Shown one piece after another: positions 5,188 through 30,023 of a stretch of DNA of 30,023 nt. How positions within the stretch are numbered: the stretch's first letter is position 1; each line of letters opens with the position of its first letter. A program made the position numbers and the translations under genes. Origin of the DNA: a virus (Duplodnaviria > Heunggongvirae > Uroviricota > Caudoviricetes). The notes below the pieces were generated by a model, which was given only the letters and a program-made list of their open reading frames with translations, made no database searches and had not been told where the DNA came from. The stretch spans positions 1-30,023 of the IMG/VR virus record IMGVR_UViG_2690316318_000018; one strand, 5' to 3'.

Positions 5188-6043
5188 AGCGCGCCGCCTG
5201 TATGTCGCTGATGGCCATATTTTGTGTGGGTTCGATTATCTCCACGCGTTGCACACCGTGCACATGCAGTGCGGCAGCAATGGCTGACAACGCCACGTCC
5301 TGACCGATAAGCCCCTGCTCAGACAGCCACTTCCTGAACGACGATTCCGCCGCGGCCAGAATAGGTTCGGATTCCGGGCCGGGGTAAAAGTACAGTTTTG
5401 CATTCAGCCGCCATGTCACGATTCTGGCACTCTGTACGGTCAGGCGGTCGGCCACCGGGCGGGTATCCTCTGCATTCAGAACGGCGCGAACGGTATTAAG
5501 CAACGCCTCCGTTGCTGTGCCGTCGCCCTCAGTGGACAGGATGGAAACCGTCACGTTGGCCGGAGACGGGCTGATGGCCCGCGCATCGCGTACCAGACCG
5601 CTGGCGCTGCGTGCAAAATACTCGTATGCACCTGACGGGCCAGCAACACTCAGACCGTCATATGCCCGTTGCGCCCGTAGTCTCAGCGAGGTGTCACTTT
5701 CCATCACTGCGTCGGTGGTATCCGTTGCCGGAGTGATAACCAGGCGCTTTGTGTTCATATTGCCCGCGAGGTTGTCCAGGTCTGTCCCGGCGCTGTGGCT
5801 TAGCATGCAGGCGCGTGCACCCTCATTGACCCGCTGGCGTAACAGCATTTCACGAAAAGACATGGTTTGAGCGATAACGTTCAGGGGTTCCGATTCCAGC
5901 TTCAGCGCGGCGGAGACGGCTTCACGCTGTTCGGCAGGATAGGACGCAATTATCATGGCCTTTGTGTCAGCCAGAATTGCCTCAAAATCAGGCTCCGCGA
6001 TGATGGCGGGTTCCGGTAACTGGGAAAGGTCAACAGCAGGCAC
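5147..6043 (-). CDS. J: Baseplate protein J
   Basis: 298-aa ORF at the P2 gpJ position, between W and I; size matches. Confidence 0.85.
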   Translation of the reverse strand: MPAVDLSQLPEPAIIAEPDFEAILADTKAMIIASYPAEQREAVSAALKLESEPLNVIAQTMSFREMLLRQRVNEGARACMLSHSAGTDLDNLAGNMNTKRLVITPATDTTDAVMESDTSLRLRAQRAYDGLSVAGPSGAYEYFARSASGLVRDARAISPSPANVTVSILSTEGDGTATEALLNTVRAVLNAEDTRPVADRLTVQSARIVTWRLNAKLYFYPGPESEPILAAAESSFRKWLSEQGLIGQDVALSAIAAALHVHGVQRVEIIEPTQNMAISDIQAARCESFTISEGGRNE

Positions 6044-6975: not shown

Positions 6976-7607
6976 CGTACAGCCTCCGCAATCCGGCCCA
7001 GCACCGTGTTATAAATCAGGCGCTCATCTGCCTGGCTGATACCCAGCAGCTCACGTACCGGGTAATCGGTGAAAATGCCCGGCGCAACCTGATCGCGCTC
7101 ACCGAACTGATGAACGCGGGCAATACGTGCGGCCACGCCGCTGTAACCCACAGTCACACCGGAAGCATCTGCACGGGCTTTCAGGTAGCGGGCGGTGCGC
7201 AGTTTTACAAACATGGGGACGCGCTTTGTGCTGTCCTGGTTGATGCGCCGGGTGCGTATTTCCAGAAAACGGTCGATGTCATCCCGGTAAAACGTGCGGA
7301 TATTGTTTTTATCCTCATCCCACCCGGTAATGGTTCGCCCGTATTTCCCCGTGTCGTGATGCCAGTTTTTCAGCGTGCGTGCTTCGTTATTCCAGATAAA
7401 GCGAATACGCTCCTGTATCCGGGTTACGCGGCGTCTGCGTGGTGCCCATGCGGTCCCGTCCGGCGCTTTCTGTGACCGGATACGTGCCTGCTGGGCGCGA
7501 CGTAAATCCTGTGCCAGCTTTCTGGCGATGTTATTGATGGCCTGCTGATTCAGGCTGTCGCGGATGGCCTCAAAAGTTTCATCCACGCGAATGAATGCCT
7601 TATCCAT
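6972..7607 (-). CDS. S: Virion morphogenesis / tail completion protein S-like
   Basis: 211-aa basic ORF between R and V, the P2 gpS position. It is longer than P2 S as I recall it, so the start may be internal. Confidence 0.65.
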   Translation of the reverse strand: MDKAFIRVDETFEAIRDSLNQQAINNIARKLAQDLRRAQQARIRSQKAPDGTAWAPRRRRVTRIQERIRFIWNNEARTLKNWHHDTGKYGRTITGWDEDKNNIRTFYRDDIDRFLEIRTRRINQDSTKRVPMFVKLRTARYLKARADASGVTVGYSGVAARIARVHQFGERDQVAPGIFTDYPVRELLGISQADERLIYNTVLGRIAEAVR

Positions 7608-8067
7608 CGCTTTCCCCCCACGTCACATCCTGGAATACATGCGACCAGTCGCCTTCGGAGGATGGCAGGCGGGGTTTTGGCTCCGGAAGGTGTTCTGCCT
7701 GCGGTGTGCCCTGACTGCTGCGCGTGATGCGAACACGTTCCCGCAGGGGAAGCGTAAACAGGAGATCGGCGCTGTCATCGTCATTGATAACGGCGGAGAA
7801 TTTGATGTCCTGATTACGCTCCGGATTGAGCAACAACTGTGGCTGATTTTCGGATAACCACGCCAGTAACGGCAGCGTGAGGTCGTCCAGCTCTCCGGCG
7901 TAATCCATGACAAACATCACCATCTGATAGCGGTAAACAAACGAGGGCGTTTCTCCGGTCGTTTCAATGTTGCCGCTCTCCACGAAAATGGTGAATTTTT
8001 CCGGGTTAGCCTGACACCATCGGCATGAACGGGTCATGGCTTCACGCAGGGAATCAGTTTTCAGCAT
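7600..8067 (-). CDS. R: Tail completion protein R
   Basis: 155-aa ORF after the lysis genes and before S; size and position match P2 gpR. Confidence 0.75.
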   Translation of the reverse strand: MLKTDSLREAMTRSCRWCQANPEKFTIFVESGNIETTGETPSFVYRYQMVMFVMDYAGELDDLTLPLLAWLSENQPQLLLNPERNQDIKFSAVINDDDSADLLFTLPLRERVRITRSSQGTPQAEHLPEPKPRLPSSEGDWSHVFQDVTWGESDG

Positions 8068-16544: not shown

Positions 16545-18749
16545 TTACGTGTCGAGAGAAATTTGTGTGCGCAGTTGAATAGGATTCAGAATTGTATATC
16601 GCTGGCGAATAACATTATATAAATCAAAGTCTTTTACCCTTACGCTTATTACCATCGCATATTGCATATCAGGGGCTGAAACTCCCTTAACATGGCGCGA
16701 AGAATCTCGGGCATGATACCGTATATCAAAAACTGGATCGCTTAATAATGTATCAGCACTGAACTTTTTGCTTCTGTGCAAACAAGTTTCCCACTTATGA
16801 CCTTCACTCCTACACTCCCTTTCAGTCTTATACTGGCTTTTTTGACCAAAGAAATCATCTGTATCGGTATCGTCAAGGCCGAATCTTGGGCGGAAAGTTA
16901 CCTGCATACCGGCCCTTGTATAGTTTACTGAATGTTCAGGATCTACTGGGGTTTGAATGCATAAAGTAGCGGTAAGCTCAAATGCTTCGTCAAAGGGAAC
17001 ATCAGGGAATGGGATCGGTGCCCTTAAATATTTATTTTTTGCTAATGAACCATAGTAAATTACTGTAGCAGTATCATTTGGACAATCGATTAAAACGTTA
17101 GGATCCTCACTAAACCGTCCCCAACCGATATGTTCACGCGAATATTTTCTTGATGTTTCAGCATGATGAACAAGCAACGCTTTCAATGCAATGGTGTTCA
17201 ATGGAGTTCCTGATAGAGCCGCAACTCCAGCGGCCGTTCTCAATGCTAATGGAGAGGCATAACTGGTTCCTTGAACTCCAACTATAGAACCAAGCAGAGG
17301 GTTGTAAGTGTAAAAAGGCTCGTCGTCGCTTCCACCAAAAATAACACCATCAGGTTTAACGAATCCGGGGCTTCTGCCTGGCCCAATACAGCTATATGGT
17401 GCCCGCCCCCATTTTTCACCGCTACGATCAGCAGCACCAATCGCTAGCGCGTTTACCATATCGGAAGGAGGTTGTATTCTCGCTGCATCACCGTCCTCAT
17501 TGCCATCATTCCCAACAGCAACAGTAAGTAATATCCCATGCTTAGCACAGATTTGGTCTAAAACAGCAGTCCATACATGAACCTCATCATCACCAATTGG
17601 AAGATGAGGACCAATACTTAGATTAGCGAACTTATAGTCACCACTATCAAGAACGGACTGTATTTTCTTAAGGACATCAAATAAATCCCAATTGCCATTG
17701 TCACCTGATGTCGGTGAAAGAACTCTATAATGATCTACATTCATAAACGGTCTTTTAAAAGAAGGTGCATTTTCCTCGACACGTCCGAATAAGAAAGTGG
17801 ATGTCACTTCATTACCGTGCTGCAATAATAATCCGCTTGTTTCTTTGGTGTCTGGATACACGTATTCCGTAACCCAATTACTCAAGTCAGCTGTCCCCAA
17901 GCCACCATCAAAAATGGCAATACGTTCGGATTCAAGAACAGCTTTAGAATTAGGGAGCTCCGGTGTAACTATATTAGATAACTTTCTGACAATGTTCGGC
18001 TGAGTACACCTGAGAGACGGCATCGGCCGCACAACGCGGATTAATGAAAAATCGAGTGTTTTTTTCATATCTTCAGGTCGCGCGTGTGCAACGATGAAAG
18101 TCAGCCCACCAACTTGGATTCTACTTTTGTAATCAACAGAGACATCATATTGTGCCGCATAGCTAATATAGGCTTTAACGATATCATCGTCTTCAACCCC
18201 AGCATGAAGAACCACTTCAAATTTTATCAAATCACTTTTCGCATGCTCAAAATTGCGTGCTCTCTCTTTTCCTTCAAAAAAGCTAACACTTTCAATTTCG
18301 ATCAAATCCTTTTGTACGCCCTTCGGAGCTGTAGGGGAATTTAAAATTTCCTTAAATCTTATAACGGCATCATCATCACCGCTAACAAACAGTTGCGCCG
18401 TTACTAAGTCCTTATTCTGATCGCACTGACGTGCCGCTTTCCGTGGGCGAATGATTACCTGACGGCTGCCGACATCCCGTAAACCTGTCGCTCTAAGCAA
18501 TCCTTCCGGAAAGTAGCTTTTACCCAAAAACGCTGGGTGTAAAGTTAAATTGAATACACTCTCCCCCCTTGGCTTAGCCGCATCATCCAAACTGCGAAAG
18601 CGTGAGAGTAAAGTATCAATCTCTGGGTTTAAATGCTCCCTTACTTCTTCAAGAGTATAGGGATAGCGCTTACCATCCCTTCCTTTAGGCAAAGGTTCCT
18701 TTTTTGTCAGAACATGACCGTTACCTAAAAGTAAGTTCCTTTCCATCAT
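16545..18749 (-). CDS. Subtilisin-like serine protease (peptidase S8 family) with ~270-aa N-terminal and ~230-aa C-terminal domains of unknown function
   Basis: 734-aa ORF. S8 catalytic motifs in canonical D-H-N-S order: …RIAIFDGGLG… (Asp ~281), …LLQHGNEVTS… (His ~311), …VAVGNDGNE… (oxyanion Asn ~414), …GVQGTSYASP… (Ser ~496). Start overlaps the upstream ATPase stop (ATGA). AT-rich codon usage. Confidence 0.85.
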   Translation of the reverse strand: MMERNLLLGNGHVLTKKEPLPKGRDGKRYPYTLEEVREHLNPEIDTLLSRFRSLDDAAKPRGESVFNLTLHPAFLGKSYFPEGLLRATGLRDVGSRQVIIRPRKAARQCDQNKDLVTAQLFVSGDDDAVIRFKEILNSPTAPKGVQKDLIEIESVSFFEGKERARNFEHAKSDLIKFEVVLHAGVEDDDIVKAYISYAAQYDVSVDYKSRIQVGGLTFIVAHARPEDMKKTLDFSLIRVVRPMPSLRCTQPNIVRKLSNIVTPELPNSKAVLESERIAIFDGGLGTADLSNWVTEYVYPDTKETSGLLLQHGNEVTSTFLFGRVEENAPSFKRPFMNVDHYRVLSPTSGDNGNWDLFDVLKKIQSVLDSGDYKFANLSIGPHLPIGDDEVHVWTAVLDQICAKHGILLTVAVGNDGNEDGDAARIQPPSDMVNALAIGAADRSGEKWGRAPYSCIGPGRSPGFVKPDGVIFGGSDDEPFYTYNPLLGSIVGVQGTSYASPLALRTAAGVAALSGTPLNTIALKALLVHHAETSRKYSREHIGWGRFSEDPNVLIDCPNDTATVIYYGSLAKNKYLRAPIPFPDVPFDEAFELTATLCIQTPVDPEHSVNYTRAGMQVTFRPRFGLDDTDTDDFFGQKSQYKTERECRSEGHKWETCLHRSKKFSADTLLSDPVFDIRYHARDSSRHVKGVSAPDMQYAMVISVRVKDFDLYNVIRQRYTILNPIQLRTQISLDT

Positions 18750-19828
18750 TTAATCCCCCACTTTTGTAATTTATTCGCGATTGTTGGATGTGAAACACCA
18801 ACTAATTCAGCTATCTTCCTATTTGAAAAACCGTCAAAATGATATTTAATTATATTGAGATCATTATCGCTAAACTCATCCAATGAAACCCTCTCCGTAA
18901 TTACGGCTTCTATTAATGAGCTTTCAAATGGAATATTTCTAAGTACCTCATTCTTTTTGGAGAAATTCAAAATACGGTTAATGATGGCAAAGGACATGCC
19001 ATCTAATAATGGTGCAAGTTTTTTAGATAGTTCAGGTTCAATATTATGATTGACTAAATATCTATCTATCAGTTCTACTGATGGCATATTAAATTTAAGG
19101 ATGTGCTCAAATCGACGCCAAACAGCCGGATCTAAGATATCAGGGTGATTAGTCGCAGCAACAAGAAGCGAGGTCGCTGGCCACTCATCTATGGTCTGTA
19201 GGAGTACAGTAACTAAACGTTTTAATTCTCCAACGTCCCTGTCATCATCACGTCTTTTTGCAACAGCATCAAATTCATCAAGCAAAAGGACACATGGTTT
19301 CTCTTTGGCATAATCCATAACGGATTTAATATTATTACCTGTTTTTCCCAAAAGAGAACTCATTACAGATGAGAGATCCAATGTTAAAAGAGGTAAATTT
19401 AACTTTGCAGCAAGCCAATGTGCGGACATTGTTTTGCCTACGCCTGGCGGGCCAGAAAGTAAAACCGTCTTCACAGGTTCAAGACCAGCTTTGAACAAAG
19501 AAACCGCATTCTCTCTTTCGTTAACAATTGACTCCAGCTTCTTTGAGATATCCGTATTCCATACAGGTTCTTCAACAATTGCGTTGACAGATGTTTCCTG
19601 CAAAAGGTTTCGTCTGGAGTCTCCATCCACAGGCATAGGAGCCTTACTAGATGCCCCACGTAATACTGTTCCCTCAGCAACTAACGAAGCCAGCTTAGAA
19701 GCTAAAGCCTCATCATTTTTACGGATGTTGTTAATCATCTTTCTGCATAGGAGTGTAAATGCATTTGCGTTGCCTTTGATGCCTTGCTCGATGAGTTTGA
19801 AAAGTTCATCCTCCCTCACGTTTACCAT
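18746..19828 (-). CDS. Classic-clade AAA ATPase with predicted C-terminal helix-turn-helix
   Basis: 360-aa ORF. Walker A LSGPPGVGKT (~126-133), Walker B VLLLDEFD (~180-187), second region of homology …LLVAATNHPDILDPAVWRRFEH… (sensor-1 Asn, Arg fingers). C-terminal segment …SNRKIAELVGVSHPTIANKLQKWG… resembles a LuxR / sigma-70 region-4 type HTH. Confidence 0.85.
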   Translation of the reverse strand: MVNVREDELFKLIEQGIKGNANAFTLLCRKMINNIRKNDEALASKLASLVAEGTVLRGASSKAPMPVDGDSRRNLLQETSVNAIVEEPVWNTDISKKLESIVNERENAVSLFKAGLEPVKTVLLSGPPGVGKTMSAHWLAAKLNLPLLTLDLSSVMSSLLGKTGNNIKSVMDYAKEKPCVLLLDEFDAVAKRRDDDRDVGELKRLVTVLLQTIDEWPATSLLVAATNHPDILDPAVWRRFEHILKFNMPSVELIDRYLVNHNIEPELSKKLAPLLDGMSFAIINRILNFSKKNEVLRNIPFESSLIEAVITERVSLDEFSDNDLNIIKYHFDGFSNRKIAELVGVSHPTIANKLQKWGIK

Positions 19829-20132
19829 AAAACCCCCAATAAAACATCAGCTTGTGTAAGCTGGTAACTACATTAATGAAAATCATTGACTAATGTTACC
19901 ACTCTTGCTGGCGTAATTCAAAGAGTATCCTTACTTTTTTACTGTATGGATAATCAGCATAAAATCTATCCAGTTGGGTTACTCGAACATACTGTCAATA
20001 CTTGTTTCCAACGATTGATCAGTTCTACAGTTTTATCTCCTTCACTTGTGTTGGCAGCATGCTTATTCCTGAACCAGCTCGATTACTTGGCCATTTGAGA
20101 AAGATGTGTAGATCTTCTGATGGTTTGTATTG

Positions 20133-20164
20133 GAACGGGGTGTATAGTGATTTGCACCCCGTTC
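20133..20164. other. 10-bp perfect inverted repeat (hairpin or operator candidate) between parR and the ATPase operon
   Basis: GAACGGGGTG-N12-CACCCCGTTC, followed on the plus strand by TTTATGTT. Confidence 0.4.
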
Positions 20165-20206
20165 TTTATGTTATGGGATTGGTGGCAGGGCGAATACGCC
20201 CTGATG

Positions 20207-20518
20207 TTATTCAGGAAATAACGCCCGGATATTTCCGGCCATCTGACTGGTTATCTGTGCGGTTGATACTGGCTGTGACGCGGGGCGTTCTGTCTTGGTT
20301 TGTGTCACTGATAACACCTCATCATCAGCCCATGCAGCCAGTCGGTAAGCCTCTGCCGGATTCATTTTCAGAAGTGCCAGCCCGGCCAGAAAAGCCACGC
20401 GTTGGCCGCTTTTGCGGGCTTCTGGTGTAAGGCTGTCCAGCCAGGCGCATGCTTCTCCTTCGTTCTTGACGGCGGTGGGCTTCAGATAGAAACTTATCCG
20501 TCTGGTTGGAGTCGTCAT
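20207..20518 (-). CDS. parR: ParR-like centromere-binding partition protein
   Basis: The track ORF is N-terminally overextended; starting at the internal Met (MTTPTRRISFYLKP…) gives 103 aa. Pattern …ISFYLKP…LDSLTPEARKSGQRVAFLAGLAL…IRALFPE resembles plasmid R1 ParR as I recall it. Starts 5 nt after the parM stop. Confidence 0.7.
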   Translation of the reverse strand: MTTPTRRISFYLKPTAVKNEGEACAWLDSLTPEARKSGQRVAFLAGLALLKMNPAEAYRLAAWADDEVLSVTQTKTERPASQPVSTAQITSQMAGNIRALFPE

Positions 20519-20522
20519 TGGT

Positions 20523-21482
20523 TTACTCCTTGTCCATTGCGTACAGCCCATTAACCAGAGCAAACTGTGGCACCCCGTCCGCGATGAAAGTCGCATTAAC
20601 TCCGCAGGCTTCGCGGATAGCGGGTGCCACAATCTCCGCCCCTCCACCGACAACCATCACCCGCCCGTAACCCGAAAAAACCGCCAGCGCGCGGATCACG
20701 CGTTGTTTCAGTGTTTCCTCCTTTTCACGAATAACCGCCATCAGGCTGTCGTAATGCGCGTCATTGTGGATGTGCTGGCGCAGCCAGGCTTCATCATAGC
20801 GATGTTCGATAATGGTATTGGCGATGTGGTGACTGGTGCGCATACCGTTAGTGGCCATCACCGACAGCACGGCATCGGCCATCAGAGAAACGCCTACGTG
20901 TGGATCGCAAAACACCTGGCTGATACCTGCCAGTTGCCCCTGAACCTTTGCCACATCCAGCGTGGTTCCGCCCAAATCCACAATCAGCAGGGATTCAAAC
21001 GGACTCATGTCAGCCAGTGCTTTAAAGCCAGCCGGAATGGATTCAGGCATAACCCGCACGTTACGGATAGTGAATGCTTCGCCGTTCTGGTACTCCACCG
21101 GGCGCATAACGTTCGCTTTTTTGCGGTTGATGTTGGCCATGTCCGGCTGTGCGTTTGTGTCGAAATACTCGCTCAGTGGCAGGGTGACAACCACATCCAC
21201 CTCCTGTGGTGTGATGCCTGATTTGACCAGCGCGTGATGAATGGCAATGACATTCACATCGCTGTATTGGTATTGCGTGTCGGTCGTCTGGACAAAGCGA
21301 TCGCTGACCGGATCAAAACCATAGCGCACGCCATCAAGCATGTAGTTCGCGGGCTGCGTGCCACCGAACGGCGCAGACCATTCCGACTTGAAGCTGTTCG
21401 GGCTGATGGCGTTGCGGCGTTCGCCGTTCTCAGTCCATGCCAGCTTGATGTTGGTGGAGCCGTCGTCGATACAAATTTTCAT
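20523..21482 (-). CDS. parM: ParM/StbA-like actin-family partition ATPase
   Basis: 319-aa ORF. N-terminus MKICIDDGSTNIKLAW…ISPNSFK…YQYSDVNVIAIHHAL…VMPESIPAG…LIVDLGGTTLD… closely parallels plasmid R1 ParM (…FIDDGSTNIKLQW…ISPNSFK…WQYSDVNVVAVHHAL…VMPESIPAG…) as recalled from memory. Confidence 0.85.
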   Translation of the reverse strand: MKICIDDGSTNIKLAWTENGERRNAISPNSFKSEWSAPFGGTQPANYMLDGVRYGFDPVSDRFVQTTDTQYQYSDVNVIAIHHALVKSGITPQEVDVVVTLPLSEYFDTNAQPDMANINRKKANVMRPVEYQNGEAFTIRNVRVMPESIPAGFKALADMSPFESLLIVDLGGTTLDVAKVQGQLAGISQVFCDPHVGVSLMADAVLSVMATNGMRTSHHIANTIIEHRYDEAWLRQHIHNDAHYDSLMAVIREKEETLKQRVIRALAVFSGYGRVMVVGGGAEIVAPAIREACGVNATFIADGVPQFALVNGLYAMDKE

Positions 21483-21513
21483 GTCGCTTTTCCTTATGTT
21501 GATTAATTAATCG

Positions 21514-21625
21514 TTTACGGGATTCTGAAATCCCGTTTTTGCCTGTTTTCTGCGCGCTTCATATATCGCTGCGCGTTTTTTGCTCATTTACGGGATTCGT
21601 GAGTCCCGTTTCTGTCTGTTTTTTG
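21514..21625. repeat. Two near-identical ~35-bp hairpin-plus-T-tract modules flanking the gene A stop, upstream of parM (parC-like or terminator candidates)
   Basis: TTTACGGGATTCTGAAATCCCGTTTTTGCCTGTTTT at 21514..21549 and TTTACGGGATTCGTGAGTCCCGTTTCTGTCTGTTTTTTG at 21588..21625. Each contains a 6-7 bp palindrome ACGGGA(T)…(A)TCCCGT. Confidence 0.5.
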
Positions 21626-24426
21626 TTTCCACTGGTCAGGCCACCCCGCAGCAGGTCTGCTTTGCGGCGGGCGCGTTCAGTGGTTTCACTGATTCTCTGT
21701 GCGTGCTCTGCGTCGCGGATGGCGCGCAGCATGTCAGAAAGCACGGTAACGGGTGTTTTCATGGTGTTCTGGTCCTGCTGAAGTGTGGATGCCAGGCGTG
21801 CGGCGGCTTCAGGGTCTGATGCCCCCAGCTGTGTCAGATAGCTGGCGACCGGGTTATGGCGGATCTCCGTGCTGCTTACGCCATGATTACGGCTCAGGCG
21901 CTGCCAGAGCTGCGTGATTCGGCTGTCCGGGCGGGTATCCGGTTTGCGTACAATTTCAAATCCCTGCGGTGCAATGATGCTGCCGTCAACGTACAGACTG
22001 CCGCCCCGTAACAGGTGCTGCATCTGTTGTTCACCGATATGCAGGCCGAGAGATTCAGCAGACTCCCGCCATTCTTTAGCGAGTAATTCGTGGTTATCAG
22101 GCAAAGGCCGCTGCTGTTTGCGGCTCTGTGTCCAGCTCTGCATTTCATCACTGCTGTTTTTTGCCTGTTTGTCACGAAGCGAACGCATCAGCGCCCGGCG
22201 TTCGTGCCGTTTCAGTGAGCGCATCCATTCATCCACATCAACGCCGTCAGGGAGCTGCGGCCACGGTGCTGGCCGTTCTTCCGGCTGTTCTGTCCCGTTG
22301 TTGTCCGTTTCCTGTACACGGGGACAGTTATTGCCACGAGTCCAAGGGGCGGCAGGGCCGCCCTGAAGGTCAAAACCATTTTCGCGGGCGCTGTCTTCCG
22401 CTTCCGGTTTACGTCTTACCAGCTTCCAGTTATCCGGATGTGTGCACACACGGGAAGACTCCCCGATGAGTGGTGACCAGATCCCGTAAATCTGTACGCT
22501 CTGTTCGCCGTAATCGTTCAGCTCATCTGCGAGGTCGTAGGCGGTGCGAATCAGGTAGTCTTTGCGTGGAACAAGTACGCCGCCCTGTTTTTCAATGTAG
22601 GAGGCAAAACACCCGGCATCAGCGGCAGCGAGCACTGCATCCATTGCGTCATCCTTCAGTCGTTGCGGGCCTTCCGGGTTGCGTGCCATCTGGCTGGCAA
22701 GGCGGCGCAGTTCACGCCACACCTGACGGGAGGGGATGCCAAAGAACTGGAACTGGCGGACCCGGTGAAGGCGCGCCCAGCCGATGGCGCGCTCCACGCT
22801 CTCGGCCATTGATTTTCCGGTTTCGTGGTCAACGCGTGGCTTGCCCGTTTTCGGGTCGATACCATCCACGGCGCGGCTGTCCAGGTTCTTTCCGATGTAG
22901 GTGGCGATGTAGCTGGTTGGCGTGCCTTTTGAGCCGTCGACATACTCCGCCTTAAAGCGCGGAGTAATATCATTGCCCAGCTCGTGGCGGTCTTCCTGAA
23001 TGGCAATATCGCGGGTGATGGCCACGATGCTGTCGATTTCTTCCGGATGAGCAAAGACCATCATATGCCAGTGCACAGTGCCGTCATGGTGAGGCTCCAC
23101 CGTGCGGATGCCATACCAGCGCAGGCCGTCGCGGTTCAGTTTCTTGCGGACCGCCGCAAAAAACGTGTTAACCAGGTAATCGCTGGAGTCGCGCATGGTG
23201 GCCCCGTTCCATTTGGGGTTCGGATGACCGTTCTCTGTTGTGGCGTGGTATTTTGACGGGCAGGTGACAGTCAGAAACACCGCTCTGTCGCCACGGGCTT
23301 CGGCCAGAAGTTCCAGTCCCTTCATGGTGGCCATCATTTCTGCCTTACGGTGAACCGGGTTACTTACTCCCGCGTAATACACTGTCTCGAGATCAATCGT
23401 GAACCCGTCTTCATTTTCCAGCATGAAACTTTTCAGGAAATCGCGTGTTTTCTCGCGCTGTGCGCGAAACTCGCTTAACGCGTCCTGGCTCAGATAGGGT
23501 GATGTTTTTCTGGAAACCAGACAGGCGGCGCGGAGTTGTTCTTCTCTCCACTCGCAACGTAACAGCCACAGTTTGCGTTTCCACCATTCCGCACAGGTCA
23601 GGCGAAGGATTGCGCCCGGCAGCAGCTCCGTGTCCGGTTCGTTCCTCCGGTCTTTGTCTGTTGTCAGTGCGTCATAATGTGGAGGCATGGCGTGCAGGTG
23701 TAACGCCATGCGGGCCAGCATCTGATACGCCTTCAGCGTTACATCCATGGTCAGTTCGCCATCAGTCGCGCCAAAGCCATCGCAGAGTTTTTCGAAGGTG
23801 CTGCTGAACATCGCCGCCGTCATGGTGGCCAGCGTCTGTATCTGGTGTTTGTTGAGCTGCGGCAGGTAAAGCAAATCGTCCAGGCGTTCGCGTCCGGCAA
23901 GGGAGCGATAACCCGGTGTCAGCCAGCGGTGGTCGGTGCGGTCCAGACGTTCGAATATTTTGCGCAGGGTTCCGCGCGCGTAGCGTTCCGCCTGCCAGCT
24001 CTTTTTGCCTTTCTGACGATCGGCTTCCTGCTTCTTGCGCAGGAAAGAGAGGTGGCGGCTCAGAGGTTCTCGCAGATAAACGGGAAGCGCCTTCAGTGTG
24101 GCAAAGGCACGGGCTACCGGGTCTTGTTCTGTTGCCCGGCGCTTACTGATGATGCTCTGTGCCAGCTTTTCACGCTGTCCGGCTTCCTCAAGGGATGCCA
24201 TGAGTTTTTTACCCATGGCGGATTGTGCGAAAAAGGCTTCTTCCTTCGCTTCCTGTTCTTTCTGTGCCCTTTTGTCCGCCTCAAGGTAGTAACGGATGGC
24301 GCGTTGCAGGTCGGTTTCAGTTTCCTGCCTGTGCTCCGTAAATCTGGCTGGATCAATGGCTGGCCGTGGTTCATTCCAGCTCCATGCAAACTCACTCATG
24401 GCTGGTATCCCGTCACGCGCTGCCAC
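21559..24426 (-). CDS. A: Replication initiation protein A (rolling-circle replication endonuclease)
   Basis: 955-aa ORF at the P2 gene A position, the largest early gene, after the small early ORFs and before the accessory interval. Longer than P2 gpA as I recall it. Confidence 0.75.
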   Translation of the reverse strand: MAARDGIPAMSEFAWSWNEPRPAIDPARFTEHRQETETDLQRAIRYYLEADKRAQKEQEAKEEAFFAQSAMGKKLMASLEEAGQREKLAQSIISKRRATEQDPVARAFATLKALPVYLREPLSRHLSFLRKKQEADRQKGKKSWQAERYARGTLRKIFERLDRTDHRWLTPGYRSLAGRERLDDLLYLPQLNKHQIQTLATMTAAMFSSTFEKLCDGFGATDGELTMDVTLKAYQMLARMALHLHAMPPHYDALTTDKDRRNEPDTELLPGAILRLTCAEWWKRKLWLLRCEWREEQLRAACLVSRKTSPYLSQDALSEFRAQREKTRDFLKSFMLENEDGFTIDLETVYYAGVSNPVHRKAEMMATMKGLELLAEARGDRAVFLTVTCPSKYHATTENGHPNPKWNGATMRDSSDYLVNTFFAAVRKKLNRDGLRWYGIRTVEPHHDGTVHWHMMVFAHPEEIDSIVAITRDIAIQEDRHELGNDITPRFKAEYVDGSKGTPTSYIATYIGKNLDSRAVDGIDPKTGKPRVDHETGKSMAESVERAIGWARLHRVRQFQFFGIPSRQVWRELRRLASQMARNPEGPQRLKDDAMDAVLAAADAGCFASYIEKQGGVLVPRKDYLIRTAYDLADELNDYGEQSVQIYGIWSPLIGESSRVCTHPDNWKLVRRKPEAEDSARENGFDLQGGPAAPWTRGNNCPRVQETDNNGTEQPEERPAPWPQLPDGVDVDEWMRSLKRHERRALMRSLRDKQAKNSSDEMQSWTQSRKQQRPLPDNHELLAKEWRESAESLGLHIGEQQMQHLLRGGSLYVDGSIIAPQGFEIVRKPDTRPDSRITQLWQRLSRNHGVSSTEIRHNPVASYLTQLGASDPEAAARLASTLQQDQNTMKTPVTVLSDMLRAIRDAEHAQRISETTERARRKADLLRGGLTSGNKKQTETGLTNPVNEQKTRSDI

Positions 24427-24785: not shown

Positions 24786-24857
24786 GCTGCAATTCTCTTT
24801 ACTACAGATGTGCGAAGGCCTCCCGCCGCAAGGTGCAGGAAAGGCCCGGAACAGGAA

Positions 24858-25088
24858 TTAATGGAGTTTGTTTTGCTGCTGGATGAGCTGTTGAAGCTCG
24901 TGCAGATCATCCGCCAGATAGCTGAAAACAGAGGCGGAATAGATGTTCGATAGCGCGTGGCTGCGCTCATGCAGCATATTGATGTGCATGATTTGCGCGA
25001 CGCGTGATGCGCGGAAAAGTCTACGGTTGATTTCAGTCTGGATGTGACGACGCGCAGCGTATGCGCGCTGTTGTTTGCGGTTTGCCAT
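24858..25088 (-). CDS. Hypothetical basic small protein (76 aa)
   Basis: ATG at 25088 preceded by AAGAGG at appropriate spacing; basic N-terminus (MANRKQQRAYAARRH…). Confidence 0.5.
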   Translation of the reverse strand: MANRKQQRAYAARRHIQTEINRRLFRASRVAQIMHINMLHERSHALSNIYSASVFSYLADDLHELQQLIQQQNKLH

Positions 25089-25265
25089 GGTGTGGCCTCT
25101 TTGCTCGGTGATAGAAATAACTCACCATCCAGAGTTGAGAATCTCGGGGTGGCGAGACGTACAGGGTTCTCAACACCGGAGAGCAAAGAATCCGGCCCGA
25201 CCGAAGTCGGCCCCGTACGCCCCGCCATAATTCTGACGCGAAAAAGACGTGGCAATACAGTACGC

Positions 25266-25290
25266 ACAAAAAAACCGCTTGCGCGGTTAT
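25266..25290 (-). terminator. Rho-independent terminator (minus strand) downstream of the 99-aa gene
   Basis: Minus-strand reading AACCGC-GCAA-GCGGTT followed by TTTTTTTGTG. Confidence 0.45.
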
Positions 25291-25358
25291 GCGCTTTGCT
25301 CTGTATCGGGTTGAGAATCCCGGCACCCGTTTTATGAGGTGCAGCGGAAATGTAACCT

Positions 25359-25390
25359 GACCGATTGCGGCATGGCAAGCGGTTTTTTTG
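25359..25390 (+). terminator. Terminator-like hairpin plus T7 tract on the plus strand
   Basis: CCGATTGC-GGCATG-GCAAGCGG followed by TTTTTTTG; imperfect stem. Confidence 0.35.
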
Positions 25391-25410
25391 TGTGTGCATG
25401 TTCTGGTTTC

Positions 25411-25710
25411 TTACTGGTTCAGAAAAAAATCAAAAACCTTGTCAATGCGTTGCAGCAGCTCTTGCTGCATTGCTTCCGGCGTTTCCGGTTCGCCAGGTGC
25501 TCCCAGCGTTGCGCAGAAATCAGCGATTTCATGATGGAGCGTCAGGCGAATGGCAGGGGCCGTGGTTTTGGCGTGCTCCAGCTGATCCAGCAGTGCCAGC
25601 ACAGCAGACGGCGAGAGCATTGCGCGAAATGCCAGTAATTTTTGAGGCGTTGCCATTCGTTGCAGGGCAAATGCCAGTTCGCGTAGCTTCTGGTGGTTGA
25701 TGGTGCTCAT
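25411..25710 (-). CDS. Hypothetical early protein (99 aa)
   Basis: ORF in the early operon, 4-nt overlap with the upstream gene; no motif recognised. Confidence 0.5.
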   Translation of the reverse strand: MSTINHQKLRELAFALQRMATPQKLLAFRAMLSPSAVLALLDQLEHAKTTAPAIRLTLHHEIADFCATLGAPGEPETPEAMQQELLQRIDKVFDFFLNQ

Positions 25711-25973
25711 GTTCTGGCTTCCTTCAGTAGCTGGTTAAACATGTGAGTAAGTGGATTGCTACACCCGAACGGCATCGGGTTTGCGTGGTAAGAAGCCTGG
25801 CCTCCAGTTTTGCGAGCGCGACCACCTGTGCTGCGGTTTGTTCTGATGACTAAGCCGCTGCGCCAAAGTCGGCGTAACTCAGCATTAATAGCTGTGGTTG
25901 GGGTGTTCAGTGCTGCGGCGATTTCTCCGCCGCTACAACCCGGATGTGTAGTGATGTAGTCCAGAATGGTCAT
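25707..25973 (-). CDS. Hypothetical early protein (88 aa), possible winged-helix DNA-binding fold
   Basis: …GCSGGEIAAALNTPTTAINAELRRLWRSGLVIR… resembles a winged-helix recognition segment; 4-nt overlap with flanking genes. Confidence 0.45.
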   Translation of the reverse strand: MTILDYITTHPGCSGGEIAAALNTPTTAINAELRRLWRSGLVIRTNRSTGGRARKTGGQASYHANPMPFGCSNPLTHMFNQLLKEART

Positions 25974-26173
25974 TTGCGTGGCTCCTGTACCTGTCGGATA
26001 AGATTCACCCGCGCCACGTTGGTGGCGCAGAAGTAAGTGCCGTCAGTGAGGTAGATGTGGTGTGCATCCTTTTCCGAACGGTGTTTGTCGATTGTGGTAA
26101 TCAGGCGTTCGTCGACTTCGTATTCACGTCCTCTGGAGGTAAAACGAACGACAGGAAAATGCTTAATTGCCAT
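25970..26173 (-). CDS. Hypothetical early protein (67 aa)
   Basis: ATG at 26173 preceded by AAGGAGG at ideal spacing. Confidence 0.55.
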   Translation of the reverse strand: MAIKHFPVVRFTSRGREYEVDERLITTIDKHRSEKDAHHIYLTDGTYFCATNVARVNLIRQVQEPRK

Positions 26174-26259
26174 TACGCCTCCTTGGCGTGTGTGAATACC
26201 TCCGCGAATGCGGATTGTTTTTACATTTTCTTATTTAACCTGTGGTTTTATTTGCGCTG

Positions 26260-26373
26260 TTATTCGCCAGTGAAAAAGCGTTCAATCTTTTTCACTGAAT
26301 TAATAATTCGCATAATCCCAATGGCGCAGGCCACCGAAATAATCAGAACAAGCCATGAGATAAATATACTCAT
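26260..26373 (-). CDS. Unlisted 37-codon ORF encoding a single-TM hydrophobic peptide, translationally coupled to the upstream 81-aa gene
   Basis: Hand translation of the minus strand gives MSIFISWLVLIISVACAIGIMRIINSVKKIERFFTGE and a stop. Its ATG overlaps the TGA of the 81-aa ORF (ATGA). Below the 60-aa cutoff of the ORF track. Confidence 0.4.
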   Translation of the reverse strand: MSIFISWLVLIISVACAIGIMRIINSVKKIERFFTGE

Positions 26374-26615
26374 GCGATATTTCCCAGCTTATACGGTTCA
26401 ATATGTTCCCCGCATTCTGCGGCACAGATCAGCTCGGAAAGTTCGTTAAGTGCATCCAGATCATCAGCGTAAAAAGCCACGTCATACAGACTTCGGATTG
26501 CTCTGGTCAATGAGTCACGGGCCGCACGTTCAGCATGAGCGCCTGATGCACTTAAGCGAAAATAAAAACGCTCAAGTGCTTTGTTAATGAGAGTTTTATA
26601 TTCTTTGCCCATCAC
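26370..26615 (-). CDS. Hypothetical early protein (81 aa)
   Basis: ORF in the early operon; acidic and helical by composition. Confidence 0.5.
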   Translation of the reverse strand: MMGKEYKTLINKALERFYFRLSASGAHAERAARDSLTRAIRSLYDVAFYADDLDALNELSELICAAECGEHIEPYKLGNIA

Positions 26616-26623
26616 AACGCCCT

Positions 26624-27259
26624 TTAATCTGCTTTCTGTATTTCAGCTTCTGAATCCATACAAATAATTTCGATATAGGGTTCATCGCCATTAACCTGGC
26701 GTGCCTTTTCAGCTTCGCTGATGATTTCTCGTACGGTCTGGTACGGAAGTTCCACAAGCAGTCGCGTGCCGTTCAGATAAACGTAAGTGGCTTCGTCGGC
26801 TCCGTTTTTACCCGCCGGAGTCACTCCGTCAATAGCGGATGCACGTAATAACAGTTCACCGCGAAAATCAATAAAACGGATAAATACACCTTGTGCATGG
26901 TCTTTGGTCATAAAGCACCTGTTATAAATCAGCCTGTTTAATGAAATTCTGTCCGCGCAGCAGACGATCAACTGGCGTAGCGCTTCGTACAATGTGAAAT
27001 CCTGCCCAAACTGATTGTCGCCACAGCTCAATGCAAAAATGCGGTTTCCGGTAAACGGATTGCGTGGGCATTTGTGGATCACGATTCCAGCTTTCTCAAT
27101 CAGCCAGGCGTGCTCGCCGATTTGTTTTACTGGGTAGCCATCCGGCGTTGCGTGTGTATCACTCAGGCTGTAGCGGATGTTGCTGCGTGATGCACTGGTA
27201 GTGAAACGGTTAGCGTGGCGTTCTGCTCCGGTACGAAAATTACGGCGTTGCTTCAGCAT
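26624..27259 (-). CDS. Hypothetical early protein (211 aa) at the position of P2 orf78/B
   Basis: First large ORF after the Cox-like gene; no motif confidently recognised. Confidence 0.5.
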   Translation of the reverse strand: MLKQRRNFRTGAERHANRFTTSASRSNIRYSLSDTHATPDGYPVKQIGEHAWLIEKAGIVIHKCPRNPFTGNRIFALSCGDNQFGQDFTLYEALRQLIVCCADRISLNRLIYNRCFMTKDHAQGVFIRFIDFRGELLLRASAIDGVTPAGKNGADEATYVYLNGTRLLVELPYQTVREIISEAEKARQVNGDEPYIEIICMDSEAEIQKAD

Positions 27260-27273
27260 AAAATGACACCTCG

Positions 27274-27552
27274 TTATTTTGTCATCTGCACGTATTTCTC
27301 TGCGTTTCTGATGGTTTTCAGGAAAATTGCGAAGAGATTTACTGTACGTTTTGAGTTTTTTTCTTCTTGGTTGATGGGAAGGGCTGCTCTGTCAGCCTGC
27401 CTTTTCACTGCATTAACAGTTTGATTGGTACGCTTCGCGTAATCTTTCAGGCTTTCTTCGAGTACCGGTAATCCATGCTCATCGCGGTATGGGTAGAACG
27501 CCGCCAAACGCTCAAAATCCGCTTGCTCGTATGTGTTCAAGAGCTTTGTCAT
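27274..27552 (-). CDS. cox: Cox/Apl-like excisionase-type regulator (HTH)
   Basis: 92-aa ORF divergent from the C repressor gene. Central segment …DYAKRTNQTVNAVKRQADRAALP… follows the P2 Cox HTH pattern (…AKLIGKSTGAVRRMIDKGKLP…) as I recall it. Confidence 0.6.
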   Translation of the reverse strand: MTKLLNTYEQADFERLAAFYPYRDEHGLPVLEESLKDYAKRTNQTVNAVKRQADRAALPINQEEKNSKRTVNLFAIFLKTIRNAEKYVQMTK

Positions 27553-27643
27553 GATGTGATAACCTGTTCAGTCTGTGGTTATTTGTTGCTAAAAGTCGTC
27601 TCTAGGCGACTTTTAGGGTTAATTTAGTCGTCTGGAGACCACC
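27553..27643. promoter_or_regulatory. Divergent early/repressor promoter-operator region (immunity switch)
   Basis: 91-bp interval between the divergent cox-like and C genes. 8-bp direct repeats AGTCGTCT at 27594 and 27626, and an 8-bp perfect inverted repeat AAAAGTCG-N8-CGACTTTT at 27591..27614. Confidence 0.55.
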
Positions 27644-27955
27644 ATGTCAAGTGGGTACGAAAAAAAACTGAAAGAGATACGGAAAAGTGAAGGGTTAACT
27701 CAAGCTGAGTTTGCAGATGTTACTGGGATAAATCTCGGAACTATAAAGAATTATGAGAGCGGTAAAAGAGAGGTTGGTTTAAGCGTTGTTGATCGCGTAA
27801 TTAATTCTAAGGATTTCGAAAAATACACTATATGGCTTATGACGGGAAAAACAAATGAGGCTGCTGGGCAGATCAGTCCCTCTCTCTCCCCTGATGGGCC
27901 AGAAAACACATCGTCTTCTCAAAAATCCCGCAAGACTGGTACACAGCCCGGCTAA
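27644..27955 (+). CDS. C: Immunity repressor C (P2 C-type HTH repressor)
   Basis: 103-aa ORF. …RKSEGLTQAEFADVTGINLGTIKNYESGKR…KYTIWLMTGKT…GQISPSL… parallels P2 C (…RKSEYLSRQQLADLTGVPYGTLSYYESGRS…KYTLWFMTNQ…GQIAPAL…) as recalled. Confidence 0.85.
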   Translation: MSSGYEKKLKEIRKSEGLTQAEFADVTGINLGTIKNYESGKREVGLSVVDRVINSKDFEKYTIWLMTGKTNEAAGQISPSLSPDGPENTSSSQKSRKTGTQPG

Positions 27956-28004
27956 TCATGGAACGCTGGGGGCATGGTGGTCTTGTAACGCTGGGGTTTC
28001 ACGA

Positions 28005-28982
28005 ATGAGCATAAAATCAATTCCGGGAGGGTATCTTCTTGACATGCGCCCGGAGGGGCGTAAAGGCAAACGCATTCGTAAAAAATTTAAAACGAAATCG
28101 GATGCAGTTTTATATGAGCGGTGGGTGCTGGCGCAACAGCATAACAATGAGTGGAAAGGAAACTCTATTGATCGCCGTCCTCTGTCAGTGCTTATTGACT
28201 TGTGGTGGAAATACCACGGCCAGCTAATGAAGTCAGGGCATAACACGCGCCTTAAATTGCTGCGCTTGAGTGAGGCAATGGATGACCCGTGCGTGCATAA
28301 ACTTAATACAACGATGCTCACCGAGCTACGTGTGTCCAGGATAGAGCAGGGGATACAGCCCAGCACCATAAATCGAGAGATTGGGGCGTTAAGCGCGATG
28401 TTTACCGCACTCATCTCATCCGGCCATTTTCTTAACGATAACCCCGTTCAAGGCCTTAAAGGAATGAAGGTTAACGAGCGCGAAATGGGATACCTGAGTA
28501 AGTCTGAATGTGTTCAGTTGCTGGATGCACTGGCTGAAAATCCCGATGAACGGCTGGCTGTCGAAATCCTTCTGTCGACCGGGGCGCGATGGGGCGAGGT
28601 AGCGGCACTGGAGCAGCGCCGTGTTCTTCATTGTCGAATCACTTTTTCAAAAACGAAGAACAGTAAAAACCGCACTGTCCCGATCTCCGAAAATCTGTTT
28701 GAAAAGATCAAAAAACGGGGCGGGAAACTAGTGTTTCCAACGCTGGATTATCCATTGGTTCGCGATGTCATCAAAACGGTCGCACCTGATGTTCCTGACG
28801 GCCAGGCTGTTCATGCGCTGCGCCACACCTTCGCCAGTCATTTCATGATGAACGGCGGTAATATTCTGACGCTCCAGAAAATTCTGGGGCACGCAAAGAT
28901 TCAGACAACGATGATTTATGCCCATCTTGCGCCGGATTACCTGCAGGATGCGGTGAGGTTTAATCCCTTGGGAGGAATGTAA
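28005..28982 (+). CDS. int: Tyrosine integrase (P2 Int family)
   Basis: The track ORF is overextended; ATG at 28005 gives 325 aa. C-terminal catalytic motifs …HALRHTFASHF… and …LGHAKIQTTMIYAHL… (R…HxxR…Y). Confidence 0.9.
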   Translation: MSIKSIPGGYLLDMRPEGRKGKRIRKKFKTKSDAVLYERWVLAQQHNNEWKGNSIDRRPLSVLIDLWWKYHGQLMKSGHNTRLKLLRLSEAMDDPCVHKLNTTMLTELRVSRIEQGIQPSTINREIGALSAMFTALISSGHFLNDNPVQGLKGMKVNEREMGYLSKSECVQLLDALAENPDERLAVEILLSTGARWGEVAALEQRRVLHCRITFSKTKNSKNRTVPISENLFEKIKKRGGKLVFPTLDYPLVRDVIKTVAPDVPDGQAVHALRHTFASHFMMNGGNILTLQKILGHAKIQTTMIYAHLAPDYLQDAVRFNPLGGM

Positions 28983-28984
28983 CT

Positions 28985-29485
28985 ATGGAAATAAAAAAAC
29001 CTACAAAAAAAGAGTTATATGACTATTTACTATCGAAATATATAGAAGATAAATGCAAAGAAGAAGCTGATGAAATCAATAAGAAGTCGATGAGTCGTGT
29101 CAATAAACATAAGGAGCGGCTGATGGAGATTACGCCAGAAATCTTCTTCCGTTTCTTGTCTGAGAAGGAGGTTTCCAGTGTCTGCCCTTCATGTGGATCG
29201 TCTCGATTATCTGTGCCTGAAAGTATGGATCTTTGCTGGGATAAAAATAAGAAACCAGAAAATTTTAACAATCTACCCTTGGAGGAGCAGAGTGAGTTAA
29301 TTAAAGAGAACATAAAGCATTATGTATCTTATACTTTTTTGGGTGATGTTAAGAGCATACCTGATATGCGCAAAACTTATTACACGCTGCATTGCCTGAA
29401 TTGTGGTTACCTGAGCCTTTACCGTACGTCTGCGGTGCTGAAGTGGTTGGAGAAAGACAAAGCACAGGATGGTGAAAATGGGTAA
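28985..29485 (+). CDS. Hypothetical Lys-rich protein with two Cys pairs (possible zinc ribbon), AT-rich cargo
   Basis: 166-aa ORF starting 3 nt after the int stop; CPSCGS … CLNCGY; strongly AT-rich codon usage unlike the phage backbone. Confidence 0.55.
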   Translation: MEIKKPTKKELYDYLLSKYIEDKCKEEADEINKKSMSRVNKHKERLMEITPEIFFRFLSEKEVSSVCPSCGSSRLSVPESMDLCWDKNKKPENFNNLPLEEQSELIKENIKHYVSYTFLGDVKSIPDMRKTYYTLHCLNCGYLSLYRTSAVLKWLEKDKAQDGENG

Positions 29486-30023
29486 TGTAGCAAGAAACCT
29501 GTTCGGTAATTCAGCAGGTAGTATGTCGCATTCTGAGCGTGATGTGCTTTATCATGGCGGCGATGGCGGCAGTAGTGGAGGTGGAATGTCAGATAAACTT
29601 GAAAGGCGAATTGAGCGACTCGAAAGTGATTTATCGCTAACAAGAAACGACCTTGCGACGCTTGCTGAACGCACTACAAACCTCTCAACCAAAGCCGATG
29701 TTGGTGAGGTGAAGGGTGAGCTCAAAGCAGACATTGCTCATCTGAAAGGTGAGCTTGAATGCGATATTGCGAATCTGAAAGGTGAGCTTAAATCTGATAC
29801 AGCTAATCTGAAAGAGCAGCTCAAATCAGACATTAACAGCCTGAAGGGTGAGCTTACCGAAGCGATGGATAAACGCTTTGACAAGATTATGGATGAGATG
29901 AATCGGCGGTTTGACAAGGTTGATGATAATACGAAGTGGCGTTGGAGTGGCATTATTGTGCCAGTGTGCACAACCATTTTCACGGCGGCGGTCGCGTATT
30001 TTGTTGCTAAATTTGTTGGCTGA
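29469..30023 (+). CDS. Hypothetical tail-anchored coiled-coil membrane protein with five tandem 11-residue repeats
   Basis: 184-aa ORF overlapping the upstream ORF by 17 nt. Gly/Ser-rich linker, then repeats …VGEVKGELKAD / IAHLKGELECD / IANLKGELKSD / TANLKEQLKSD / INSLKGELTEA…, then a single C-terminal TM helix (WSGIIVPVCTTIFTAAVAYFVAKFV). Ends at the window edge. Confidence 0.55.
   Translation: MVKMGNVARNLFGNSAGSMSHSERDVLYHGGDGGSSGGGMSDKLERRIERLESDLSLTRNDLATLAERTTNLSTKADVGEVKGELKADIAHLKGELECDIANLKGELKSDTANLKEQLKSDINSLKGELTEAMDKRFDKIMDEMNRRFDKVDDNTKWRWSGIIVPVCTTIFTAAVAYFVAKFVG

Follow-up and report, generated by a model that had tools for sequence, protein, structure and literature searches.

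The closest described relatives of the system analysed here are the ParMRC cassettes of the IncFII plasmids R1 and R100 (StbA/StbB), type II partition systems in which an actin-fold ATPase (ParM), a DNA-binding adaptor (ParR) and a centromere (parC) serve a low-copy plasmid. In R1, parC is composed of two sets of five direct iterons, and the C-terminal tail of ParR is the peptide that binds ParM. The tailed Escherichia coli phage D6, which has a plasmid lifestyle, also contains an R1-family ParM. Comparable machines are found in elements that are integrated in the chromosome. SrpMRC of the SXT/R391 integrative and conjugative elements (ICEs) stabilises the excised, replicating element and uses a centromere of four 13-bp repeats (PMC4489591), and AlpAC/alpS of the Corynebacterium glutamicum prophage CGP3 comprises an actin-like filament, a DNA-binding adaptor and cis sites (PMC4446434, PMC5539076). 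Here we analyse a parMR cassette in a 30,023-nt stretch of viral DNA, hereafter the window (IMG/VR record IMGVR_UViG_2690316318_000018, positions 1 to 30,023), which represents a P88-like (Xuanwuvirus) prophage of the P2 family. We put at roughly 55% the probability that parM, parR and a candidate parC of this prophage form a complete, selectively maintained R1-type ParMRC cassette that acts on transient extrachromosomal phage circles.

The genes themselves have been seen before. RefSeq names the products 'plasmid segregation protein ParM' and 'plasmid partitioning/stability family protein', and PHROGs contains families for both. P88, phiSM and Xuanwuvirus prophages of E. coli and Citrobacter have the same genes (94-98%), annotated as ParM and 'partition protein'; IetAS is the cargo of the window. 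ORF35 (open reading frame 35) of phiSM is listed as a putative 'fitness' gene (PMC6456863), and Rousset et al. 2022 remarked on the system and proposed that it functions in plasmid maintenance (PMC9122126). The observation and the plasmid-maintenance idea are already published, and the cassette is a typical example of a familiar type of system, found in a host element that is slightly unusual but has been reported before. What we add is a two-site candidate parC with R1-like half-sites, a selection profile, evidence that the cassette is an old core module shared by several genera of enterobacteria, and chromosomal-location statistics that disfavour a stable plasmid lifestyle.

The parM gene (20523-21482, minus strand) is an ATG-initiated ORF encoding a 319-amino acid protein. 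Its translation matched Pfam StbA_N (1.6e-82) and the ParM C-terminal domain (6e-68), as well as PHROG 691 ('partition protein'), and it aligned over its whole length with R1 ParM in the PDB (1mwk, E=1.6e-92). Global alignment yielded 46% identity to R1 ParM, with which it shares both Pfam domains and the intact ATPase motifs IDDGSTNIK, MPESIPAG (equivalent to R1 E148), DLGGTTLD (equivalent to R1 D170) and GGGAE. From these matches we conclude that the 319-amino acid protein is an R1-type ParM. No NCBIfam model captured either ParM or ParR, the matches being limited to weak ones with PRTRC_D and PRK13917.

The parR gene lies on the same strand at 20207-20518, with its ATG at 20518 and its stop at 20207. 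A longer, 148-amino acid form with a TTG start was present in the mechanical ORF list; we adopted the 103-amino acid ATG reading. This protein matched Pfam PF10784 (Plasmid_stab_B, 6.7e-24) and, over its full length, PHROG 2515. A phmmer search against PDB sequences returned no match. The R100 ParR and parC sequences were taken from the plasmid record, and hhalign comparison of a 23-homologue ParR profile with R100 ParR gave a probability of 97% (E=7.5e-11, 32% identity) over residues 5-67. At the C-terminus, the sequence ...AGNIRALFPE resembles the KNAxxLFP of other phage ParRs and the KKNAMKLIN of R100 ParR, such that the K-N-x-x-x-L peptide is similar in phage and plasmid, and the tail ...(K/G)NI(R/Q)xLFPE hardly varies between ParR alleles that diverge elsewhere. 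R100 ParR is longer, 116 rather than 103 amino acids. These comparisons identify the 103-amino acid protein as a ParR with an N-terminal DNA-binding domain homologous to that of R100 ParR. An AlphaFold2 (AF2) monomer built from the 23 homologues was of low confidence (predicted local distance difference test score 58, predicted TM-score 0.37); it placed helices at residues 20-61, a C-terminal one at 86-100 and disorder in between, at 62-85. Foldseek comparison of this low-confidence model with the PDB found nothing below E=5, so the ribbon-helix-helix fold was not confirmed. An uninformative model is expected because ParR is an obligate dimer with a disordered linker.

An earlier note on this DNA, made from the sequence alone, had described a 319-amino acid ParM/StbA-like ATPase and a ParR-like protein of about 103 amino acids, in the order parM-parR directly downstream of replication gene A. 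Its coordinates, lengths and gene order are right, the ParR assignment is borne out by the profile matches, and the alignment that it proposed to the R1 ParM/ParR families gave the likeness reported above. Gene A, which encodes the rolling-circle replication endonuclease (21559-24426, minus strand; Pfam Phage_GPA, PF05840, 7.9e-131), is upstream of parM in the same orientation and ends 76 bp from it. The same note had seen plausible centromere-like repeats upstream of parM, and these are present as well.

A repeat search revealed two 42-nt direct repeats within 21511-21625, a feature to which no strand is assigned. The repeats (21511-21552 and 21584-21625) are 81% identical and spaced by 73 bp. 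Each holds one 20-nt palindrome of the form GGGATT-N4-AATCCC, and the palindromes are likewise 73 bp apart. The proximal palindrome, ACGGGATTCTGAAATCCCGT (21517-21536), is situated in the A-parM intergenic region with its core at -52 relative to the parM ATG, and the distal one, ACGGGATTCGTGAGTCCCGT (21590-21609), is in the last codons of gene A with its core at -125. No further copy of the core CGGGA-N8-TCCCG was found in the 30-kb window. However, two matches to this core anywhere in 30 kb occurred in 14 of 100 shuffles and are not rare by chance, so the weight of the palindrome pair comes from its conserved position. Among 84 P88-like loci, the proximal site was at -52 or -51 in 82 and both palindromes were present in 80, with the 73-bp spacing retained in 79 of these 80. 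The cores GGGATT and AATCC(C/T) were essentially invariant in these loci and the 4-nt centre was polymorphic.

The pair is also found in more distant lineages. We mapped the motif GGGW-N6-WAW-CCC relative to the parM ATG in E. coli (the window), Hafnia and Plesiomonas, the ParMs of the latter two each being 62% identical to that of the window. The sites are at -125 and -52 in the window (one further match in 30 kb), at -128 and -55 in Hafnia (no further match in 17 kb) and at -131 and -59 in Plesiomonas (one further match, on the other strand); the spacing is thus 72-73 bp in the three lineages. Among P2-like phages in the phage collection, none combined a P88-type A C-terminus with the absence of parMR, as only P88-like phages matched. 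The Hafnia locus was used to separate repeats linked to A from repeats linked to par. There, a 167-amino acid ORF (7453-7956 of that locus, L087) lies between A and parM, and the distal site is inside this ORF rather than in A. We therefore assign the repeats to the par module rather than to A or its origin.

The half-sites can be compared with those of R100, where AACCC cores recur every 11 bp in the parC region. The phage half-site A(A/T)CCC is alike, which fits the homologous DNA-binding domains of the phage and R100 ParRs, and the gene order parC, parM, parR is common to both systems. The arrangement differs, as the direct 11-bp iterons of R1 contrast with a pair of inverted-repeat sites, separated by 73 bp, in the phage. 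In related cassettes of plasmids and ICEs, TATCTC-type iterons take the place of the phage motif. On this evidence, the palindrome pair is probably the centromere, and we refer to it as the candidate parC. An Rfam scan of 19800-21900 returned nothing meaningful, such that the palindromes correspond to no known RNA family. Palindromes acting only as hairpins were considered less likely, as comparison across lineages shows arm sequences that are conserved and do not co-vary, and stems that are reduced to 3-4 bp in Hafnia and Plesiomonas.

Upstream of parM, the Serratia (L091, 7880-7980) and Enterobacter (L092, about 5860-5960) loci contain a long inverted repeat, GGGAAC..ATAGAAAAAT / ATTTTTCT..GTTCCC, with arms of 14-19 nt, together with two copies of an 11-nt direct repeat, ATTTCATGACC. 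These repeats may represent a different centromere design.

Selection on the cassette was examined in 86 P88-like loci taken from IMG/VR, genomes and records. An intact 960-nt parM was present in 85 of the 86. The ratio of nonsynonymous to synonymous substitution rates (dN/dS) was 0.07-0.09 for parM, and for ParR it was 0.135 in the N-domain, 0.63 in the linker and 0.02 in the last 11 residues. A functional motor, and a functional adaptor in which a flexible linker joins a DNA-binding domain to a motor-binding tail, would be expected to give such a profile. We conclude that the parMR cassette is under purifying selection.

ParR is more variable than ParM in the P88-like lineage (53-100% versus at least 92% identity). 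All ParR alleles nevertheless retain two elements, the RRISFYLKP strand at the N-terminus and the tail at the C-terminus. In several P88-like phages, parM and the first 18 parR codons are about 98% identical to those of the window and are followed by a ParR allele that is about 52% identical. This second allele is 104 amino acids long, ends in ...KKNIQTLFPE and diverges after residue 18, at about position 20464 of the window, which points to a recombination breakpoint inside parR. It appears that the boundary of the adjacent hotspot sometimes takes in the ParR linker and C-terminus.

That hotspot is the gpA-gpQ interval, and the earlier note had placed the module within it. The module does border the accessory region, and its distribution indicates that it is not part of the cargo. 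Related ParMs are found in P2-like prophages of Hafnia, Plesiomonas, Serratia and Enterobacter (62%, 62%, 58% and 54% identity to the window, respectively), and in all four the order is gpA, parM, PF10784 parR, variable cargo, (ogr) and portal. In the neighbour-joining tree, which carries no bootstrap support, the phage ParMs group together; homologues at about 50% identity have plasmid-like or ICE-like contexts. Our survey of 5426 complete E. coli genomes found the P88-type A gene in 1355 (at least 80% coverage) and the parMR stretch in 1308. Homology between phages is continuous across parMR and ends just after parR or within its 3' part, and megablast matches to other P88-like phages begin at 20089-20212 of the window (query 90-213). 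PADLOC matched neither ParM nor ParR to any defence model. As parMR and the A gene co-occur at close to 1:1 and the position is the same in other genera, parMR is best read as an old core module, the conserved boundary of the gpA-gpQ hotspot on its left side, and not as one of the interchangeable inserts. The A-parM junction also takes up insertions to a minor extent, judging from the ORF in Hafnia and from the Enterobacter locus, in which a 231-amino acid methyltransferase-like ORF and a 71-amino acid ORF lie between A and parM (L092, 4914-5848).

In the minus-strand orientation of these genes, the AAGGAG ribosome-binding site of parR overlaps the parM stop codon, and this overlap suggests translational coupling of parM and parR. 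A simple consensus scan detected no sigma-70-like promoter on the minus strand in 19800-21900 and no terminator-like site on that strand between A and parM. Because neither a terminator nor a separate promoter was detectable between the two genes, parMR is probably co-transcribed with A, at the downstream end of the early replication operon. R100 differs in this respect, as its parC region contains a TTGACA box, whereas no sigma-70 promoter was detected near the phage repeats.

Starting from the identity of ParM and ParR, the purifying selection, the conserved synteny and cis-motif and the chromosomal location of the prophage described below, we propose the following mechanism. ParR dimers would bind the two palindromes just upstream of parM, and by homology to R1 the C-terminal peptide of ParR would recruit ATP-bound ParM filaments that push parC-bearing DNAs apart. 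Transcription would probably accompany that of the early replication operon. The substrate would be the circular phage genome, either before integration after infection or following excision, during A-dependent replication. The action of the cassette would be to share the circles out between daughter cells or to spread them within the cell. We consider the circular genome to be the likeliest substrate because the prophage is almost always chromosomal. The binding of ParR to parC, the timing of expression and the biological role are what we infer.

SrpMRC offers a parallel in lifestyle. It too is a type II cassette in a normally chromosomal element that undergoes rolling-circle replication when excised, it has a small centromere upstream of the motor gene, and its proposed role is the stability of the transient excised form. 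The differences are that SrpMRC has a ParM of another clade, related to IncA/C, that SrpR is without recognisable ParR homology, and that it belongs to a conjugative element in which its function has been demonstrated experimentally (Carraro et al. 2015, PMC4489591), whereas the phage cassette is described here from its genes. AlpAC resembles the phage cassette in being the system of an integrated prophage that is used on induced phage DNA. However, AlpC is a distant actin-like protein of an actinobacterial prophage rather than an R1-type ParM, and there is no sequence relationship to the PF10784 ParR.

The earlier note had suggested episomal or phage-plasmid maintenance, or else segregation of replicating DNA. 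The first of these would make the phage a facultative phage-plasmid, with a stable low-copy circular form as an alternative to integration, and it is the idea in print in Rousset et al. 2022 (PMC9122126). Such a lifestyle would account for the presence of a complete plasmid-type partition system, and the related StbA/ParM of D6 (47.5% identity) is used by just such an element, although D6 is a 91-kb P1-like phage-plasmid and not an integrating P2-like phage. The location of the cassette argues otherwise. It is present in about 24% of the complete E. coli genomes, including enteropathogenic E. coli (EPEC) E2348/69 and O157:H7 strains, and of its 1456 places 1454 are chromosomal and 2 are in plasmids. 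Seven PLSDB records contain the module; six are large replicons with an inserted prophage, or a fragment, and one is a phage-sized circle. The latter, NZ_CP148288.1 from E. coli Z1323PEC0009, is a 34,461-bp circular 'plasmid' that corresponds to a whole P88-like genome encoding int, C, cox, A, parM and parR. The chromosome of strain Z1323HEC0067 (NZ_CP148378.1), whose name follows the same scheme, contains a 100% identical phage in integrated form, and the circle could be a maintained episome or an assembled excision product. Phage-plasmids are recognised by extrachromosomal lysogeny and a plasmid replicon, usually with no integrase, whereas this prophage is chromosomal and retains an integrase and a C repressor. 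The earlier note had reported both of the latter genes, which we find as a tyrosine integrase within 27855-28982 and a C-type helix-turn-helix (HTH) protein at 27644-27955. The sole annotated replication gene is that of the lytic rolling-circle endonuclease gpA, and the annotation of the near-identical E2348/69 prophage includes no plasmid replicon. Given the bias of 1454 to 2, a stable plasmid lifestyle is unlikely, and plasmid prophages of this type would be rare at most. The other suggestion of the earlier note, segregation of replicating or excised DNA, would fit the data better.

Two further explanations do not involve inheritance of the phage. ParM might position or transport replicating phage DNA for replication or packaging during the lytic cycle, for which AlpAC of CGP3 is a precedent. 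The cassette directly follows A with no terminator between them, and it is kept in the inducible or spontaneously active phages P88 and phiSM (PMC6456863). This proposal overlaps with partition of transient circles and differs from it solely in the purpose of the movement. P2, which packages monomeric circles, is without such a system. So are other P2-like phages, as only about one quarter of P2-like phages have one (PMC9122126), and the cassette is therefore not required for the P2 mode of replication or packaging. We regard an exclusively lytic role as possible, though not probable. Far less credible is a function unrelated to segregation, that is, hotspot cargo mediating exclusion or incompatibility against plasmids or phages, or a decaying relic of plasmid-phage recombination. 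The cassette does lie within the gpA-gpQ interval, a known hotspot, beside IetAS, and parM is truncated in some lineages. However, the absence of PADLOC matches for either protein, the near 1:1 association with the P88-type A gene and the retention of position across genera at 54-62% ParM identity all run counter to cargo, and strong purifying selection speaks against a relic. In addition, the parC motif is unlike the TATCTC-type iterons of plasmids and unlike the R1 arrangement, so there is no obvious target for cross-incompatibility. A more speculative proposal, which we consider rather doubtful, is a heritable extrachromosomal state of P88-like phages supported by the gpA replicon and the two-site parC, or an effect of the chromosomally embedded parC/ParMR, when expressed, on segregation of the host chromosome. 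If true, the two-palindrome parC would represent an unusually compact form of the R1 centromere, built of inverted repeats.

Several points weigh against partition of transient circles by a complete ParMRC cassette. The candidate parC has two sites (four half-sites), compared with ten iterons in R1, and the palindromes could instead form hairpins in the mRNA or be bound by another phage protein. The Serratia and Enterobacter relatives, with ParMs at 54-58% identity, are without the GGGATT-N4-AATCCC pair and have another inverted repeat. Truncated ParM clusters of 229 amino acids (649 members) and 188 amino acids (555 members) exist in public data, and phage 503458 has a frameshifted parM; the truncated clusters imply that the gene is dispensable to its host and is decaying in some lineages. 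The whole-genome circle NZ_CP148288.1 is compatible with a plasmid state. Co-transcription of A and parM was read from the simple consensus scan, and the high copy number reached after rolling-circle replication may leave little for active partition to do. Finally, the literature on P88, Xuanwuvirus and P2-like ParM comprises annotations and one speculative sentence, with no functional experiment.

The distribution of the cassette gives the question its interest, as a plasmid-type segregation machine resides on an integrating phage in about 24% of complete E. coli genomes. If excised or pre-integration circles were segregated, partition of a transient episome, which has so far been shown for ICEs, would extend to common tailed phages. 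This could help to explain the efficiency of lysogenisation and the stability of the prophage. The candidate two-site parC provides a concrete and cheap target for binding and plasmid-stabilisation experiments.

Two observations concern ParM homologues in public data. Another truncated cluster, of 261 amino acids, has 414 members. A 226-kb contig assigned to the Gram-positive Vagococcus sp. WN89Y (NZ_JBQPOM010000071.1) encodes a ParM with 97% identity to that of the E. coli phage; the contig is most likely the result of contamination or mislabelling.

For the 1.7-kb stretch surrounding parMR, identity amounts to 98.9% with one E. coli chromosome and to 98.7% with that of EPEC E2348/69; its nucleotide identity to phages P88, P884B11, phiSM and others is 94-98%. 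Just 3' of parR, a terminator and hairpin scan identified two GC-rich hairpins (20132-20165 and 20186-20203), both of which have T-rich tails on the plus strand only. They mark where the conserved module ends and homology among phages breaks off. They look like terminators for transcription from the cargo side, and not for the parMR transcript.

Between parR and the portal gene, which is on the plus strand, lies the low-GC cargo of the window (16545-19828, minus strand), which is not part of the par module. It consists of an IetA-like AAA ATPase with a C-terminal HTH and an IetS-like S8 protease of 734 amino acids (PADLOC IetA 3.6e-89 and IetS 6.6e-41). The GC content of the pair is 0.38-0.46, compared with about 0.55 in the flanks. 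The NCBIfam IteA/IteS matches of the pair fall below the curated cut-offs, and we therefore take it to be a divergent defence system of the IetAS type.

The replication, par, cargo and late genes (about 13-24 kb) are collinear with those of the E2348/69 prophage with a one-base offset. Comparison of layouts, made without alignment, showed that the ORFs of the immunity/integrase region (about 24800-30023) are arranged unlike those annotated in that prophage; the integrase is within 27855-28982 in the window and at 27176-28150 in the E2348/69 prophage locus. These layouts point to an early/immunity/integrase region that is mosaic with respect to the E2348/69 prophage.

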